From the sequence record SRR31156797_6782: a stretch of 33,778 nt of DNA. The stretch is one strand, 5' to 3'. The translations under genes and the position numbers were made by a program. Below are positions 1 through 6,799 of the stretch, one piece after another. Under the pieces are notes generated by a model. That model saw nothing but the letters and a program-made list of their open reading frames with translations, did not search any database and was not told the DNA's origin. Position 1 is the stretch's first letter, and every line of letters starts with the position of its first letter.

Positions 1-2
1 AT

Positions 3-482
3 AATAAGGATGCCGAAAAAAATGCATCTACAATTCTAAAGCTCTGGAGAGATAAAAACTTACCTGTTTTTCATATTATTCATCATTCAACTGATTCAAA
101 TTCAAGCTTCCGTGGAGGGCATACTGGATTTGAAATAAAAGATGAAGTTAAACCAATAAGTGGTGAAGTTGTAATTGAAAAAAATGTACATAGCGCTTTT
201 ATCGGTACAGATTTAAAAGAAAGGCTGGATAAACAAAAAATCAATTGCTTAGTCATTATGGGGCTGACCACTAATCATTGTGTATCAACATCAACTAGAA
301 TGGCAGGGGACTTCGGATTTGATACGTTTTTAATATCAGATGCTACTGCAACATTTGACAGAATTGGAATTAATGGAGAAATATTTGCAGCGGAAATTAT
401 TCATCAAACTGCTTTAGCTAATTTGAATAATGATTTTGCAAAGGTGATTGACACAAAAACATTATTTGAGTTGGTACAATAA
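3..482 (+). CDS. Cysteine hydrolase / isochorismatase family protein (5'-truncated by window edge)
   Basis: Frame is open from position 3 (NKDAEKNASTILKLWRDKNLPVFHIIH...VIEKNVHSAFIGTDL...VIMGLTTNHCVSTSTRMAGDFGF...SDATATF). The K-x3-SAF, G-x-x-T-x-x-C-V and DA motifs are typical of the family. The ORF-track start at 258 is an internal Met. Confidence 0.9.
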   Translation, partial: NKDAEKNASTILKLWRDKNLPVFHIIHHSTDSNSSFRGGHTGFEIKDEVKPISGEVVIEKNVHSAFIGTDLKERLDKQKINCLVIMGLTTNHCVSTSTRMAGDFGFDTFLISDATATFDRIGINGEIFAAEIIHQTALANLNNDFAKVIDTKTLFELVQ

Positions 483-490
483 ATGCCTGC

Positions 491-621
491 CGCTATCAAA
501 AAAATATACGTATTGCGGAGAGATGTGGTATTTGAAACTTTTATACATTTACTCAAAATTGTAGCAATATGATAGTTTTGTGCTTCAAAATCCCGCACTA
601 CGCATATTCTAACCGTTAACT
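491..621. mobile_element. attC-like imperfect palindrome (candidate gene-cassette recombination site)
   Basis: Arms 503-518 (aatatacgtattgcgg) and 593-608 (ccgcactacgcatatt) are complementary at 14/16 positions. They are flanked by cgctATC (491-497, degenerate inverse core) and GTTaact (615-621) at 5- and 6-bp spacing. An inner ttgaaac/gcttcaa pair is also present. The element sits directly between a stop codon and the next gene. Confidence 0.55.
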
Positions 622-650
622 GCATTCAAAAACAAAACAATAAAGTTTAA

Positions 651-1751
651 ATGATGAAGCAAATATTATTTGTGCTCTTTCTTTTTCTAAAAATAATTAA
701 TGCGATTGGACAAGAACGATACTATTTCGAAACACCCTCAAAAGCAAAAACTCAATATGAAATTGATCTTAATAATTCAAAAATTCATCATACAGATACT
801 GTGAATTTTAAGATTGAGTCACTTACTCTTTTAAAACCCCAAAAGTCATGGCATAATAAAAGCTTACATTTACAAACAATAGACAACGATACTATTTATG
901 CAAGCGATAACACAGGAGTTAATCTATATCTCTTTGACATGAACGGAAATCCTATTCGTAAAATTGATTTAAGTAAATTTGATAAACATTTTAAAATAAC
1001 GAATAGTGAGATTTATAATGATACTCTTTATTTAGCGGATAAAGAGTCTCTGTTTTTATTCAAATTAACGAGAAGTGGTGATTTAATTACAAAAACTACT
1101 TTGCCTTTTAAATTTGAGGATTTCCAAATCAACAATCAAGGCATATATTTCATTAGTAAGCATTTGGATGAAAAGCGAGAAAAAAGGATACTAATTAGCT
1201 TATACGACTTTTCATTAGATCTACAGAAACTTTATTTTGTTACAGATAAACAAAATATGACAGAATTAAGACCAAAATTCTTTAAAGGTGAGTGTGATGA
1301 AAATTTATTTTCAATAACAGAGTGCAATCAAATATATAAACTGGAAAAAAATAAGGTGTCCTTATATTTACAAGTTAATGGAGGAAATTATATAAATTCT
1401 TATGCAAATGGAATTGGATTTCATATGTTAGAAGAAGCGTTTTCTGTAAAGGGAGAATCTTATTATGATCTCAATAAATATTATTATCCAAAAGAAAAGT
1501 TGAAAGACGGTATAGAATTTCAATCATATGGTCCAAACGACCTTACAATTTTATTAAACGGTTCTAAAGCTTATCAGCGTACTTACGTAAATATCACAAA
1601 AATGAGTAATGTTCAAATACCAAATATACTTAAAATGAAATGGGCTGAGGATCATAAATATATTAAAGACGAATTACTAGAGCTTATTAAGCAGGTTGAT
1701 GAGAATAATAAATTTGTTTTGGTGAGTTATAAAGTGATTGAGAATCCTTGA
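651..1751 (+). CDS. Exported hypothetical protein, likely 6-bladed beta-propeller
   Basis: N-terminal signal peptide; repeated blade-like motifs (DTIYASD..LYLFDMNG, DTLYLAD..LFKLTRSG, GIYFISK..ISLYDFS). Confidence 0.65.
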   Translation: MMKQILFVLFLFLKIINAIGQERYYFETPSKAKTQYEIDLNNSKIHHTDTVNFKIESLTLLKPQKSWHNKSLHLQTIDNDTIYASDNTGVNLYLFDMNGNPIRKIDLSKFDKHFKITNSEIYNDTLYLADKESLFLFKLTRSGDLITKTTLPFKFEDFQINNQGIYFISKHLDEKREKRILISLYDFSLDLQKLYFVTDKQNMTELRPKFFKGECDENLFSITECNQIYKLEKNKVSLYLQVNGGNYINSYANGIGFHMLEEAFSVKGESYYDLNKYYYPKEKLKDGIEFQSYGPNDLTILLNGSKAYQRTYVNITKMSNVQIPNILKMKWAEDHKYIKDELLELIKQVDENNKFVLVSYKVIENP

Positions 1752-1900
1752 TCTCGTAGGTCGATATAGCAATTGCGAACACATTACAAGGAACCATTAT
1801 CCAAACAACACCTTTTGAATAACGAGAAAATACAACGAATTAAAATGCCAGCAAATAACATGAGGCAGGCTGATATGCTTTATTGAATGCAAAACCGTCC

Positions 1901-1945
1901 AAAAAAAAAAACTGAACATATAGATAGCTAGTGTTCATTTTTTTT
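1901..1945. terminator. Possible bidirectional intrinsic terminator (weak stem)
   Basis: A11 tract, stem tgaaca(1913-1918)/tgttca(1932-1937) with an inner tag/cta pair, then a T8 tract. Confidence 0.4.
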
Positions 1946-2202
1946 CAAAATATGAACATTAATGTGATTGCTATTCAATAATTGGACATACATTGGCATT
2001 GTGTCCTAAAACAAAGGAAAATTGAACGCTCAAAGAATGCAGCCTAATAAAGCAGTAAAGTATAAAGTCCGACATGCTGCTAGAGTAAATTCGATCTCTT
2101 TACGTGACACACTTAGAAGAACCCTCTAGCATAACCATTATTTATACCTCCATATTAGATATACAGTTATCTGAACATCCTCTATTTTCCAGGGGGGGGA
2201 GT

Positions 2203-2731
2203 AGGTATATTTTCTCTGGTAAAAGGTAATTTGTAGCTTATTTTAGGTATACACTCATCGTCTTTAGGTATTTACTTGCGGGTAAAAGGTTTTTTTCCTG
2301 TGTAAATAGGTGTTTCTCTTCTACAAGCAGGCCTAATTTTTCTTCATTTAGGTGTTTTTACCCAATAAACAGGTGTTTTTTTTGATGCATTTAGCCTTTT
2401 TCCTAGAAATTTTAGGTGTTTCTTTGCTCCTTTTAGCTTTTTAATTCCCATTTTTAGGTATTTTGCTAGCAAACGACAGGCCTTTTTTAAGGGTATTTAG
2501 GTGTTTTCTCTGCCCTATTAGGCATAAATTTACTGGCTTTAGGTGTTTTTTTACATATCAATAGCTTTTTTGTTACTTGATTAAGGTATTTTCTCACCCA
2601 TTTTAGCTTTTTGATTTCCCTTTAAAGGTGTTTTTCTGTTAACTAAATGGCCTTTAATTTGTGCAGACAGCCATTTTCCTTCACTCAATAGGGTTTGTTC
2701 CTCTACATATAGGTGTTTTTCCAATGGCACA
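2203..2731. repeat. Phased non-coding array of 25 degenerate 21/22-bp units (consensus about tttAGGTgtttt + ~9-10 variable nt)
   Basis: Cores (AGGT/AGGC/AGCT/AGCC and variants) start at 2203, 2224, 2245, 2266, 2287, 2308, 2329, 2350, 2371, 2393, 2414, 2435, 2456, 2478, 2499, 2520, 2541, 2563, 2584, 2605, 2626, 2648, 2669, 2690 and 2711. That is twenty 21-bp steps and four 22-bp steps. Stop codons occur in all six frames. Confidence 0.92.
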
Positions 2732-2774
2732 TGCTCCAATAGTATATACCATCTTCACTGCTCTAAGTTAATTG

Positions 2775-4139
2775 CTATTCTCTTTTATAATTTTGTACGT
2801 TCTCCAGTACTTCGTTCTGCATAGATACCGAATCACAAAGCACATTTTTAAGAAAAACATTTTTCACAGGAAGACTCTCCTGTGCCAATATTCTGGCAAC
2901 AAATTTACCCTGATCCGCATGTATATTTGTTAGGTAAATATCTTCAATAGGCGTTAGTTTTCTTTCAATGGTTGGAACCAGGTTGCGCCACTGGTACAAC
3001 ACATCCGTTTCAATTCCAAATACGCCTTCTCTCATAGTATTCCCTTCAATATTTTGGATATGAATATTTTTAACATAGCCACCTCTGCGCTCGTTTGTTT
3101 TAATAAAAACCAAATGAAACATATTGGCTCCATCTGCGACCGTACAACTGTCAACAAATACATTTTCGATTCCTCCGGAAAGTTCACTGCCAATAGCAAC
3201 TAGCTGATGTCCGTTTTTTACAAAGCAATTACGCATCACTAAATTTTTGGTAGGAGTATGTAATCTCCAGGCATCCTGATTTCTTCCTGCTTTAATAGCA
3301 ATCGCATCATCTCCCTGGTCGAACAGACAATCTTCAATTAGAATATTTTGCGTCATTTCCGGATCTACCCCATCATTATTATGCCCATGAGCATAAACAT
3401 CCAATTTACGAATCACAACATTCTTGCATAAATAAGGGTGTATAGTCCAAAATGGACTATTACGAATAGACACTCCCTCTAATAATACATTTTCGCATCG
3501 GTTAAACTGAATAAACTGTGGTCGCAGGTTAGCTGTATCATTTACCATCACTCGATCTTCAGCCGGAGCATATTCAGATGCCTTCATATACAGCCACTTT
3601 ATACTATTCATATGCGCCCGTGGTCGCTTGTACCATTGCTTCCAAACATCCAGCTTTGCCTTTAATTTTCCCTCTCCGGTGATGGCCACATTTTTACACT
3701 CATAAGCATACACCAAAGGCGAATAATTGTAACATTCCATGCCTTCCCAGGTAGTATGTACGGCCGGTAAATAATCTTCCGGCTTCTCGGAAAACAGCAA
3801 CACAGCTCCCTTTTTTAAATGCAGATTTATATTACTTTTTAAGTGGATTGCTTTCGTCAGCCATTCTCCTTGCGGGATAATAATCGTACCACCTCCAGCT
3901 CCATTTGCTGAAGCAATAGCCTCAGTTATGGCCGAACTTGTTTTTTCTTTATCACCTTCCTTTGCACCAAAATCAGTGATTAAATACTCTTTACTTTCCG
4001 AAAAGTCTGGAATAGTGATGACCGGCATTTTAAAAGGAGCCTCAACCTGCACCGAAGTTAATTTTACAGATGGACTCTTCGAACAAGAAACGACCAAAAC
4101 AAACAATAATAAAATGTAAACTGTATTTTTCATTTTCAT
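2775..4139 (-). CDS. Glycoside hydrolase family 28 (polygalacturonase-like) lipoprotein
   Basis: Lipobox VVSC; ITDFGA start of the beta-helix; NNDG, GDDAIAIK, GH and IGSE motifs; FIKT in place of RIKT. Confidence 0.92.
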   Translation of the reverse strand: MKMKNTVYILLLFVLVVSCSKSPSVKLTSVQVEAPFKMPVITIPDFSESKEYLITDFGAKEGDKEKTSSAITEAIASANGAGGGTIIIPQGEWLTKAIHLKSNINLHLKKGAVLLFSEKPEDYLPAVHTTWEGMECYNYSPLVYAYECKNVAITGEGKLKAKLDVWKQWYKRPRAHMNSIKWLYMKASEYAPAEDRVMVNDTANLRPQFIQFNRCENVLLEGVSIRNSPFWTIHPYLCKNVVIRKLDVYAHGHNNDGVDPEMTQNILIEDCLFDQGDDAIAIKAGRNQDAWRLHTPTKNLVMRNCFVKNGHQLVAIGSELSGGIENVFVDSCTVADGANMFHLVFIKTNERRGGYVKNIHIQNIEGNTMREGVFGIETDVLYQWRNLVPTIERKLTPIEDIYLTNIHADQGKFVARILAQESLPVKNVFLKNVLCDSVSMQNEVLENVQNYKRE

Positions 4140-4289
4140 ATAGATAATTACAAAACTGTGATTACAAAAATGAAAACAATCTTAAAGCTACACCATGGAT
4201 TATTATTAATAAACATGTATTATTCTACTTTTTAGAACCTGTAAAATCGTATGCAAGAAACAATCTTAGTTCCTTATAATCTAGCAAAC

Positions 4290-4332
4290 AAAAAAGCAGC
4301 AAAACCAAGAATAACATCTGGTTTTACTGCTT
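4290..4332 (-). terminator. Intrinsic terminator of fbaA
   Basis: Stem aagcagcaaaacca / tggttttactgctt, with an A-tract that gives a U-tail on the minus strand. Confidence 0.7.
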
Positions 4333-4396
4333 AAATTAAATCAATATTGTTTTTCATAAACCTCTACTAAATACGAGGTTCATCCAAATAAACTAC

Positions 4397-5473
4397 TTAT
4401 AGTACATCAATACATTGAAGGTCTTCAAAAGCCACTTTAAGTCTAGCCACTAATGTTTCCTGACCTTTACGTAACCAAACACGTGGATCGTAGTACTTTT
4501 TATTTGGTTTATCATCGCCATCAGGGTTACCAATTTGTCCTTGTAAGTAAGGTCTGTTTTCAGCTTCAAACTTACGAATACCATCCCAGGTAGCCCATTG
4601 CGTATCGGTATCAATATTCATTTTGATCACACCATAGCTAATTGCTTCGCGAATTTCTTCTAAAGTAGAACCTGATCCTCCGTGGAAAACAAAGTTCACA
4701 GGATTTTTACCTAAACCATGTTTCTCTTCGATATACTTTTGCGAGTTATCAAGGATTTTTGGAGTCAACACTACGTTTCCTGGCTTATAAACCCCGTGTA
4801 CATTACCAAATGAAGCAGCAATAGTAAAGTTTGGCCCAACAGAACTCAATACTTCGTATGCCTGATTCACTTCTTCCGGTTGTGTATATAATAATGCATT
4901 GTCCACATCTGAATTATCCACACCATCTTCTTCTCCACCAGTAATTCCAAGCTCAATTTCGATAGTCATGCCAATTTTGTTCATTCTTTCGAAATACTTC
5001 TTACAAATTTCCAGGTTTTCTTCAAGTGGTTCTTCTGATAAATCCAACATGTGAGAGCTAAACAAAGGCTTACCTGTTTCTGCAAAATGCTTTTCACCAG
5101 CATCCAGCAATCCATCAATCCAAGGTAATAATTTTTTAGCAGCATGGTCGGTATGCAGAATAACAGGTACACCGTAAGCTTCTGCCATCATATGCACATG
5201 TTTTGCAGCTGAAACAGCACCTAAAATCTGACCTTGTTGTCCTTCTAAACCAACACCTTTTCCGGCATAGAACGCAGCACCACCGTTTGATAACTGAATG
5301 ATAACCGGAGAGTTTACCACTTTTGCAGCTTCTAATACTCCATTAATAGAGTCTGTACCAACAACATTTACTGCTGGCATTGCGAAACCATTGTCTTTTG
5401 CAACCTGGAATAATTTTGTTACATCATCACCAGTTACAACACCGGGTTTTACAACGTCTAATACTTTTCCCAT
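4397..5473 (-). CDS. fbaA: Class II fructose-bisphosphate aldolase, type A (E. coli FbaA-like)
   Basis: HTDH, SSHMLDLSEE, GGEEDGVDN, FGNVHGVYKPGNV, FHGGSG, KMNIDTD and KKYYDPR motifs. Confidence 0.97.
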   Translation of the reverse strand: MGKVLDVVKPGVVTGDDVTKLFQVAKDNGFAMPAVNVVGTDSINGVLEAAKVVNSPVIIQLSNGGAAFYAGKGVGLEGQQGQILGAVSAAKHVHMMAEAYGVPVILHTDHAAKKLLPWIDGLLDAGEKHFAETGKPLFSSHMLDLSEEPLEENLEICKKYFERMNKIGMTIEIELGITGGEEDGVDNSDVDNALLYTQPEEVNQAYEVLSSVGPNFTIAASFGNVHGVYKPGNVVLTPKILDNSQKYIEEKHGLGKNPVNFVFHGGSGSTLEEIREAISYGVIKMNIDTDTQWATWDGIRKFEAENRPYLQGQIGNPDGDDKPNKKYYDPRVWLRKGQETLVARLKVAFEDLQCIDVL

Positions 5474-5658
5474 AATTAAATAAGTAAAATGATAAATTAT
5501 TATTAAACAAATATTGCTAAGTTATCAGCTAAGCAAATTTCCAATTTACATTAAATAAAGTCAACACTAAAATATAGTAAATGTTTAGGATTACGAGAAA
5601 AAAAACGATTTTTTAAGATTAAACATTGTTAAAACATGACTTTAATCACAGTAAATTA

Positions 5659-5689
5659 TTGGATAACACATTAGGAATATATACATTTG
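5659..5689 (+). promoter_or_regulatory. Bacteroidota sigma70-type promoter for the second aldolase
   Basis: TTG at 5659-5661, a 20-bp spacer, then TACATTTG at 5682-5689 (matches the -33 TTG / -7 TAnnTTTG consensus). Confidence 0.6.
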
Positions 5690-5803
5690 CGCCTTTAAAA
5701 ATTAAAACTACCAAGGCAAACAATACCACTGCATTATCCCAGATATAATGTAAGGGACAAGACCCGAAATTAAGGACAAATTAATCAATAAACTAATAAA
5801 CAA

Positions 5804-6799
5804 ATGGCAGTTAATTACAAAGAATTAGGGCTTTCGAGCACTCCTGAATTGTTTAAAAAAGCTGTAGCTGGTGGATACGCTATCCCAGCTTACAATTTCA
5901 ACAACCTTGAGCAAATGCAAGCGATTATCCAGGCTTGTGTTGAAACAAAATCTCCAGTTATTCTTCAAGTATCTGCAGGAGCAAGAAAATATGCTAATGC
6001 AACTTTGTTAAGAAACATGGCGAAAGGTGCAGTAGAATATGCTAAAGAACTTGGTTATGAAATTCCAGTAGTTCTTCACCTTGACCACGGTGATACTTTC
6101 GAACTTTGTAAAGATTGTATCGACAACGGTTTCTCTTCTGTAATGATCGATGGTTCTCACCACTCATACGAAGAAAACGTTGCTTTAACAACAAAAGTAG
6201 TAGAGTACGCTCACGCTCATGGTGTTGCTGTAGAAGGAGAACTTGGTGTATTAGCTGGTGTTGAGGATGATGTAGTAGCAGAAGAGTCTACTTACACAAG
6301 ACCAGAAGAGGTAGAAGATTTTGTTAAAAGAACAGGTGTTGATTCTTTAGCTATTTCTATCGGTACTTCTCACGGTGCTCATAAATTTACTCCTGAGCAG
6401 TGTACTAAAAATGCTGATGGTATTTTAGTTCCACCACCATTGAAATTCGATATCTTAGAAGAAATCGAGAAAAGAATACCTGGTTTCCCAATCGTACTTC
6501 ACGGATCTTCTTCTGTACCTCAAGATCACGTTGCTACAATTAACGAGTTTGGTGGAGAAATTAAAGCTGCTATTGGTATTCCAGAAGACGAATTACGTAA
6601 AGCTGCTAAATCAGCTGTATGTAAAATTAACATCGATTCAGATGGTCGTTTAGCTATGACTGCTGCTGTTAGAAAAGTAATGGCTGAAAATCCAGGTGAA
6701 TTCGATCCTAGAAAATATTTAGGTCCTGCTCGTGATATTTTGAAGGATCTTTACATGAAGAAAAACATCAACGTATTAGGTTCTGCTAACCAAGCTTAA
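5804..6799 (+). CDS. fba: Class II fructose-1,6-bisphosphate aldolase, type B (Bacteroides-type Fba)
   Basis: HLDHG, SVMIDGS, EGELG, GTSHG, LHGSS, KINIDSD and FDPRKYLGP motifs; strongly biased codon usage typical of a highly expressed gene. Confidence 0.95.
   Translation: MAVNYKELGLSSTPELFKKAVAGGYAIPAYNFNNLEQMQAIIQACVETKSPVILQVSAGARKYANATLLRNMAKGAVEYAKELGYEIPVVLHLDHGDTFELCKDCIDNGFSSVMIDGSHHSYEENVALTTKVVEYAHAHGVAVEGELGVLAGVEDDVVAEESTYTRPEEVEDFVKRTGVDSLAISIGTSHGAHKFTPEQCTKNADGILVPPPLKFDILEEIEKRIPGFPIVLHGSSSVPQDHVATINEFGGEIKAAIGIPEDELRKAAKSAVCKINIDSDGRLAMTAAVRKVMAENPGEFDPRKYLGPARDILKDLYMKKNINVLGSANQA

Follow-up and report, generated by a model that had tools for sequence, protein, structure and literature searches.

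What kind of element sets short repeats alternating strictly between two types, and lengthens its step by one base at exactly every fourth unit, in DNA that appears to encode nothing? The question is raised by a stretch of 33,778 nucleotides from the record SRR31156797_6782 (hereafter, the window), which belongs to a marine Bacteroidota chromosome and in which 25 short units lie head to tail within a 1-kb gap between two convergent genes (1752-2774). An earlier sequence-only reading of this array offered two answers, namely a periodic correction of helical phase for a dimeric or tetrameric binder, or a dual-repeat/dual-spacer unit of 42-43 nt loosely resembling tandem interspaced guide RNA (TIGR) arrays. 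We argue here that the regular 22-bp steps and the alternation are more simply explained as inherited from the tandem duplication of multi-unit blocks. With somewhat better than even confidence, we take the array to be a higher-order tandem repeat that codes for nothing, a minisatellite of bacterial type whose 21-bp unit spans two helical turns; this is a claim that joins the origin of the repeat grammar to its non-coding, DNA-level nature.

Layout of the array and origin of its higher-order period

Counting each unit from the A of its AGGT core, and taking the T-rich strand as plus, the array is laid out as follows.

2203..2731, plus strand: whole array, 25 head-to-tail units of 21-22 bp
2203..2370, plus strand: block I, eight units at pure 21-bp steps, with an AGGT core in 7 of 8
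2203, 2224, 2245, 2266, 2287, 2308, 2329, 2350, plus strand: unit starts of block I, each step 21 bp
2371..2710, plus strand: block II, four 85-bp super-units (22-21-21-21), with A/B alternation to 2648 and 170 bp as the strongest period
2371 (22-bp step), 2393, 2414, 2435, plus strand: unit starts of super-unit 1
2456 (22-bp step), 2478, 2499, 2520, plus strand: unit starts of super-unit 2
2541 (22-bp step), 2563, 2584, 2605, plus strand: unit starts of super-unit 3
2626 (22-bp step), 2648, 2669, 2690, plus strand: unit starts of super-unit 4, the next unit starting at 2711
2711..2731, plus strand: last recognisable unit, with an AGGT core and the 85-bp register kept

The descriptive part of the sequence-only reading stands. 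Between 2371 and 2648, type A units (AGGT[G/A]TTT) occupy all seven of the positions named for them and type B units (AGCC, AGCT, AGGC or TGGC) all seven of theirs; the four 22-bp steps are spaced exactly 85 bp apart, in a register that extends to 2711; and the first eight units, which had been called mostly type A at pure 21-bp steps, are type A in seven cases, the lone non-AGGT unit of block I being the AGGC at 2329. The alternation stops after 2648, the units at 2669 and 2690 reading AGCC and AGGG, respectively. What the units have in common is a core of the form W3-A-G-[G/C]-T-N-T4, with A/T-only columns immediately 5' of it and an S-rich column at +13. Across the 25 units, A stands at position 0 in 24 and G at +1 in all 25, while position +2 is G in 20 and C in 5; T is found at +3 in 18, at +5 in 24 and at both +6 and +7 in 21, and C (15 units) or G (7 units) fills +13 in 22. 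The plus strand of the array is 45% T. Because only some 8 unit columns are conserved, none of the 15 rows that Tandem Repeats Finder returns for the window covers the array. The conserved core measures ~8-12 bp and the spacers 9-13 bp.

The periodicity of the two blocks can be read from the identity of the sequence with itself. Over 2190-2740 lag 21 gives 0.46 and lag 85 gives 0.48, as against 0.30 +/- 0.02 in shuffles, and the block I region (2190-2370) gives 0.47 at lags 21, 42 and 84 and 0.30 at lag 85. Across 2371-2732 the strongest raw identity falls at lag 170 (0.594), followed by lag 85 (0.538; 0.54 inside 2371-2668) and lag 21 (0.452). A gapped comparison of whole units eight apart (170 bp) scores 4.89 versus 1.79 +/- 0.89 (p=0.0008), and the excess survives when shuffling is restricted to within the A and within the B positions (p=0.012); at four units apart the gapped similarity is weak (p=0.02, or p=0.16 with the within-position shuffle). 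Two hallmarks of a minisatellite or higher-order tandem repeat are present: multi-unit periods that show block copying (the 170-bp lag, the eight-unit similarity and the periods of the relatives described below), and head-to-tail non-coding units, all 25 of them in DNA where each of the six frames is interrupted by stops. Repeatedly copying a block that contains a single 22-bp unit would be expected to leave a strict 22-21-21-21 register with A/B alternation.

Unequal recombination or slippage between units would have built the array, a 43-bp A+B dimer giving rise to an 85-bp block that carried one 22-bp unit; this block would have been copied to 170 bp and then to 340 bp, and the spacers would have decayed afterwards.

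Homologous and related arrays

The nearest genome used for comparison, G001, is a Saccharicrinis metagenome-assembled genome that is 97.1% identical to the window over 16.8 kb to the right of the array and 90.3% identical over the array itself (2141-2750). As a single homologue, its array is collinear with the 25 units of the window and has two extra intact units at the left edge. Window and G001 differ at 37 of 532 array columns (2200-2732). The resulting divergence is 7.0%; third codon positions differ by 6.2% and the remaining intergenic DNA by 3.9%, which suggests that the array has diverged at about the neutral rate. The broad core columns differ as often as the spacer columns (20/303 and 17/229, p=0.73), and the seven most conserved columns somewhat less often than the remainder (7/175 versus 30/357, p=0.07).

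These differences touch both regularities of the array. It had been proposed to ask whether homologous arrays keep the 22-21-21-21 pattern, and the G001 array does not keep this A/B grammar intact: it differs at one 22-bp step and at one alternating type-B unit. By a T8/T7 difference at 2376, the first 22-bp step of the window is 21 bp in G001, and by C/T differences at 2332 and 2523 two units that read AGGC in the window read AGGT in G001, one of them (2329) the lone AGGC of block I and the other (2520) a type B unit of the alternating part. The unit at 2648, TGGC in the window, reads AGGC in G001, and at 2712 there is a G/C difference within a core. One DNA sequencing run matched the G001 variant exactly and gave no independent variant; a metagenome scan with a 26-mer at the stop codon of the right-hand neighbour, a glycoside hydrolase family 28 (GH28) gene, gave 0 matches.

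Left of window position 2141 there is no homology to G001, and since the shared sequence ends there, the array sits at a synteny breakpoint. Window 1-2140, with an isochorismatase fragment and a 366-aa gene, is missing at this G001 locus, which instead carries a ParD antitoxin gene followed by a short stub open reading frame (ORF) that may be the remnant of a toxin gene. G001 also has an extra insert of ~150 bp (L001:2097-2255), with an internal palindrome, between the bases that correspond to window 2750 and 2751; it may be a small mobile repeat.

True non-coding TAGGT arrays were found, among 61 related genomes, only within the same genus, where the TAGGT[G/A]T core recurs at non-orthologous loci in 3 of 23 species searched, besides the window. 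G001 has a second such array of ~13 units at another locus, likewise between convergent genes; G019 has one of 5 units, and G021 has three, of 14, 16 and 6 units. The arrays are lineage-specific and are not kept at orthologous loci: a lag-21 signal is present at just one of 80 GH28 loci, that of G001 itself, and at the locus of the second G001 array all 22 other species of the genus lack it.

The relatives supply clear cases of block copying. In two of the G021 TAGGT arrays the top lag is 85 (0.73 and 0.75), followed by 170 and by 43 (0.69 at 43), and their spacers are mutually homologous (score 5.13 versus 1.27 +/- 1.0, a value that none of 200 shuffles exceeded). The second G001 array runs at plain 21 bp and does not favour lag 85 over 84; arrays of the genus with other cores have periods of 41, 42 and 126 bp, and the spacers of the window array bear no likeness to those of the G021 arrays. 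The 85-bp pattern thus recurs in homologous arrays, as the sequence-only reading had thought worth checking, but it does so in the form of ordinary tandem copies. From the G021 arrays and the second G001 array together, the 85 bp could be inherited, coincidental or constrained.

Several candidates were dropped from the family. The arrays of G009:C201 and C35 keep a heptad-repeat frame open and probably encode protein, and a short TAGGT pair, seen in G007, G008 and G021:C99, falls within a gene that resembles, by eye, an rmlD-type sugar-nucleotide reductase. TAGGT heptamer repeats in relatives are an artefact of the search pattern (3 x 7 = 21), with no link to the arrays shown. As observations in their own right, long TAGGT heptamer microsatellites (TAGGTAG, TAGGTCA, TAGGTGT and others) occur in G003, G011, G013, G026 and G027 (loci L024, L039, L032, L020 and L023), and at G019 locus L025 repeats of an AGTATCA-type heptamer adjoin the 5-unit TAGGT array. 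The TAGGT pattern scan over all species genomes returned at least 122 stretches and gives no usable census. A scan of viral contigs returned 17 stretches, all of them plain 21-bp tandem repeats or triplets and none resembling the window array. Several uncultured viral contigs (L258, L262, L263, L265, L267, L268 and L272) share a conserved triplet of 21-bp TAGGTATTT direct repeats, which could be an operator or origin site.

DNA shape, constraint and rival readings

If the grammar is a residue of copying, one may still ask what has kept the core. The TTT runs of the array have their strongest period at 10.62 bp, stronger than 21.24 bp, and 10.6 bp is also the main harmonic of the A/T-versus-G/C pattern. 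In 315-bp windows the phased-tract power of the array is 4.2, where the median of the window is 0.22, the 95th percentile 0.54 and the maximum elsewhere 1.65. A wedge model (that of Bolshoy and Trifonov) predicts an end-to-end to contour ratio of 0.12-0.13 for 210 bp of the array, which would thus be nearly self-closing, versus 0.92 for the median and 0.91 for shuffles; by the same model the G001 copies are similarly curved and the G021 arrays more weakly so. The proposal of a helical-phase correction was right, then, in that the phasing is real and extreme for the window, though the regular 22-bp steps themselves are more simply derived from block duplication.

Because the core and the 10.6-bp alternation persist while the spacers are near random, something appears to constrain the DNA itself, and our best guess is a minisatellite that evolves fast, with DNA-level constraint on its short core and helical phasing. 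Most probably the constraint would take the form of short sites, phased along one face of a strongly curved duplex, that a protein or a nucleoid component recognises. In the available text of Tong and Mrazek, phased A-tracts are given a possible role in nucleoid compaction. That the array has a selected function at the present day is a possibility we take seriously but would not, on balance, expect to hold. No archaeal-type histone fold (PF00808) was found in 4 genomes of the genus.

A number of points weigh against this picture of copied blocks under a constraint on the DNA. Over the nine spacer columns compared without gaps, the identity four units apart is 0.36 against a null of 0.378 (p=0.65), and at eight units there is only a trend (0.446, p=0.075), so that the duplication signal rests on whole units and on the gapped comparison. 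The earlier statement that spacers 85 bp apart are not copies of each other accordingly holds in the narrow ungapped sense, though not against the gapped whole-unit signal, which is found at eight units and weakly at four. The similarity of the blocks is uneven, 85-bp blocks 1 and 3 being clearly alike and 2 and 4 far less so. That the 85-bp period is found in both G021 arrays, despite spacers unlike those of the window, means that 85 bp could be constrained rather than inherited. Neutral decay alone cannot give a near-invariant core between random spacers, and the G001 comparison shows weak core protection at most (p=0.07). As for the curvature, besides its dependence on the wedge angles assumed, any 21-bp repeat sums its bends in phase, and so the bending need not be selected.

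The best surviving rival is a functional, phased row of binding sites, iteron-like or centromere-like, in which a dimer or tetramer would bind A/B half-sites and the extra base in every fourth unit would keep all 25 sites in a 10.6-bp register. We think it unlikely, although it has real attractions. The core is far more conserved than the spacers, the mean period of block II (21.25 bp) is 2 x 10.62, the top T-tract period, and both the return of 85 bp in the two G021 TAGGT arrays and the recurrence of the TAGGT[G/A]T core at non-orthologous loci in three species would be natural consequences, as would the lower rate of change in the most conserved columns noted above. A register needed for binding should not, however, be missing from block I and from the second G001 array, both at plain 21 bp, nor should G001 have a 21-bp step where the window has 22 and AGGT for AGGC in two units; overall divergence that is about neutral, and absence of the arrays from orthologous loci, likewise tell against it. 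Nor do the neighbours suggest a partner: 17 proteins scanned around 5 other array loci have no family in common, and neither among these nor among 23 window proteins is there a common gene for replication, partition or regulation. The more particular idea of replication-origin iterons was rejected, there being no rep gene among the neighbours and no DnaA-box cluster at the arrays. Exact DnaA boxes in G001 (111 versus 83 in the control) are scattered, without a cluster at either array, and dnaA lies at 0.20 Mb, with the arrays at 1.69 and 3.29 Mb.

Much less probable still is that the array acts as RNA, be it as a TIGR-like precursor cut to 42-43-nt guides or as a sponge RNA with ~25 copies of a short motif. 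The available text on TIGR systems (PMC12045711) describes repeats opened by UG (box D) and closed by CCA (box C), in units of ~36 nt with two 8-12-nt spacers, and the alternation of short repeats with variable spacers loosely recalls that layout. Read-through from the GH28 gene is also possible, as the terminator scan returned no candidate site on the minus strand beyond the GH28 stop, nor any 3' of the array. The particulars disagree: the unit is 42-43 nt and not 36, the core lacks CCA, and no box C or CCA stands at a fixed place on either strand of the array. The two flanking genes contain no Nop domain by Pfam, and PF01798 finds nothing better in G001 than a match of 11.3 bits, below its cut-off of 25.4 bits, with the limit that Tas proteins were found by structure-guided mining and Pfam may miss some. 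TIGR arrays have, in the portion of the catalogue available, been recorded around tas loci (bioRxiv 10.64898/2026.09.09.750476). The dual-repeat/dual-spacer suggestion therefore finds no footing here. No match to the array was found in phage and plasmid collections at E below 0.05. The spacers of the young relatives, moreover, are copied and not unique. A structured non-coding RNA was rejected, as Rfam gives 0 matches at E up to 1 in window 1-6000 and the folds of the two strands are no more stable than shuffles (z-scores of +0.50 and -0.09). Clustered regularly interspaced short palindromic repeats (CRISPR) have near-identical repeats of ~23-50 bp, unique spacers of similar length and cas genes; with a core of ~8-12 bp, spacers of 9-13 bp and no cas among the Pfam families of the window ORFs, a CRISPR array was rejected as well.

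Scarcely credible is a dead gene for a lysine-rich heptad-repeat protein, in which the 12-nt core would read K-T-P-K in one minus-strand frame and 21 bp would be seven codons. Minus-strand ORFs of 42, 36 and 52 aa do tile 2344-2739 with KTPK-like strings, and 12 conserved plus 9 variable nucleotides would suit four conserved and three variable residues, but the 22-bp steps shift the frame, higher-order repeats of 85 and 43 bp are incompatible with coding, and stops number 9-14 per frame in the window array and 6-22 in that of G001. Among the 8 arrays translated, 6, the window array included, have stops in all six frames, the exceptions being a short array of G021 and the G009 one that was set aside as coding. 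No TAGGT-family array is open along one frame except that 128-bp G021 array, whose units follow the 4-unit (84-85 bp) order of the G021:C43 array.

The wider array class, its insertion element and the surroundings

The minisatellite reading places the window array within a broader class. Non-coding arrays are numerous in the genus; they repeat at 20-22 bp at base level and at 41, 42, 43, 85 and 126 bp at higher order, and each family has a 7-10-bp core of its own (e.g., CCAATCAG, CCTTGTAAG, TCAATGAC, CTACAGGA and GGTAACAT). In both other species of the genus examined, G021 and G008, there are arrays whose base period is likewise ~21 bp but whose short cores differ from that of the window. Beside the G021 arrays lies a multicopy element of ~1.46 kb, with inverted-repeat ends of ~26 bp, which encodes a 408-aa transposase of the Mutator family (IS256-type; PF00872, E=3e-102). 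The loci concerned are these.

L299:6630-6880, L301:5320-5560, L307:14040-14290: sampled arrays of G008
L172, L276, L277, L278, L280, L281, L282: element-array junctions of G021
L291, L295, L296: element-array junctions of G008

This IS256-family element lies next to the arrays at a rate far above chance. It is in contact with all three G021 TAGGT arrays; 7 of its 11 left ends in G021 abut 21-bp-period arrays (of four unrelated core families), the other 4 abutting ordinary sequence, and in the complete genome G008 3 of 11 left ends abut arrays, 2 of them independent. Arrays make up ~0.25% of the DNA in an evenly spaced 400-kb sample of G008, in which the only strong non-coding periodic arrays were three at 41-42 bp, with two marginal ones at 21 and 22 bp. 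The association has p ~7e-4 in G008 and a much smaller p in G021, where the array density of G008 is used. We read the association as the element preferring the arrays, or their shape, as targets; the curved structure proposed above as the site of constraint would also attract the insertion sequence. Alternation of A/T and G/C at 10.5 bp is not class-wide, being the top harmonic in 7 of 15 arrays. In the open-access literature, no IS256-family preference for such arrays was found described.

One could carry this further and see in the ~21-bp arrays cis-acting scaffolds, each core bound by a family-specific protein that would form a ring or superhelix on curved DNA, serving as a boundary or anchor between convergent genes, with the 85-bp (eight-turn) register setting the pitch and the IS256-family transposase targeting the structure. 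We regard so detailed a scheme as a long shot.

The contrary notion that the arrays are themselves copies of a transposon end, made as a transposase decoy or by aberrant transposition, draws on those same contacts in G021 and on one unit type of G021:C98 that matches the element end at 13 of 18 positions, but it is hardly tenable when 1 of 27 comparisons of element ends with arrays reaches 0.02, shuffled ends score as high as the window array or higher, the same element targets arrays with unrelated cores, and G001 has no copy of the element's end. Two likenesses to the element in the window are leads only. The 23-mer at 2160-2182 is the best window match for the query end and yet at chance level, and window 1898-1922 scores 35 against a sub-terminal part of the element, versus 23.9 +/- 3.1 and a maximum of 38 in shuffles; both would fit the synteny break.

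Of the known kinds of element, the bacterial non-coding minisatellite comes closest. In the available text of a survey of prokaryote satellites, dispersed non-coding families of long repeats are reported in only two of the species surveyed (Subirana and Messeguer, 2019; PMC6749651), and neither "21 bp" nor "Bacteroid" occurs in the text available under that accession. With the minisatellites and satellites treated there the array shares head-to-tail, intergenic, non-coding units, a dispersed family, lineage specificity, fast evolution and block-duplication periods; it is unlike them in a 21-bp unit tied to two helical turns, in having ~8 conserved columns and in being missed by repeat finders. 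From TIGR arrays, as far as the two sources at hand describe them (PMC12045711; bioRxiv 10.64898/2026.09.09.750476), it takes the appearance of two alternating short repeats with short variable segments, poorly detected by CRISPR and repeat tools, and it departs from them in its want of a Tas/Nop gene, of UG...CCA and of a terminator, in its 42-43 nt versus 36 nt, and in "spacers" duplicated at higher order. Minisatellites of C. elegans Helitrons, in the available part of one preprint (bioRxiv 10.64898/2026.08.08.743475), are described as remodelled to the helical repeat, with intrinsic curvature and a proposed action that is mechanical and does not depend on a short binding motif; the periodic A/T clusters of that species resemble the array in a period equal to the DNA helical repeat and differ in belonging to eukaryotic chromatin, and nothing in the array points to an insulating effect. 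The open-access literature yielded no description of short-core two-turn arrays in Bacteroidota.

More distant parallels are instructive in other ways. Primate alpha satellite consists of 171-bp monomers in higher-order units, with a CENP-B box that is conserved while the monomer diverges; the array likewise combines higher-order monomer groups with a short conserved box, whereas alpha satellite is eukaryotic, of megabase scale and has a known binding protein. The iterons of plasmid and phage origins and the parC and sopC centromeres (the sopC unit is 43 bp) are direct repeats some two helical turns apart, often in bent DNA. The array is a row of direct repeats at about two turns as well, but it has no rep or par gene nearby, 25 sites rather than a handful, a chromosomal location and no conservation between species. 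LytTR response regulators bind groups of two or three 9-bp direct repeats, separated by 12-13-bp spacers, upstream of promoters; the array has the same 21-22-bp spacing of a ~9-bp direct repeat, with a poorly fitting consensus and no such regulator nearby.

The general lesson is that a regular repeat "grammar" can be a by-product of block duplication, for which the nearest homologue should be checked before a code is read into it. The features by which the class may be known are a short core, a base period of ~21 bp, escape from repeat finders, strong predicted bending and a role as IS256-family hot spots. If core and phasing are truly selected, these arrays would offer a simple bacterial system in which to study how DNA shape and phased sites organise a chromosome or steer transposition.

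The immediate surroundings of the array are as follows.

651..1751, plus strand: left neighbour gene, a 366-aa protein with no Pfam family, oriented towards the array
2141..2202, plus strand: degenerate left edge, aligning to two intact TAGGT units of the homologous G001 array
2160..2182, minus strand: IS-end-like 23-mer (a lead only), 16/23 to the IS256-family inverted-repeat end, where shuffled windows reach 15-17/23
2775..4139, minus strand: right neighbour gene, glycoside hydrolase family 28 (PF00295, E=4.5e-27), its stop codon facing the array

The N-terminus of the 366-aa protein looks, by eye, like a signal peptide. There is no ORF of at least 60 aa in the gap 1752-2774, and the Bacteroidota -7 promoter box has 0 matches there and 51 in the window, versus 51.4 expected. 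The degenerate left edge carries a G8 run (2192-2199) directly before the first unit, where G001 reads GGGTG, and a weak terminator-like hairpin at 2181-2205 on the plus strand is the sole terminator-like site in the region scanned. Farther off, a 119-bp stretch at window 499-617 is 79% identical to another place in G001, C1:94248-94367, and so is a dispersed short repeat, and on the other side two class-II fructose-bisphosphate aldolase paralogues lie adjacent and divergently oriented at 4397-5473 (minus strand) and 5804-6799 (plus strand).

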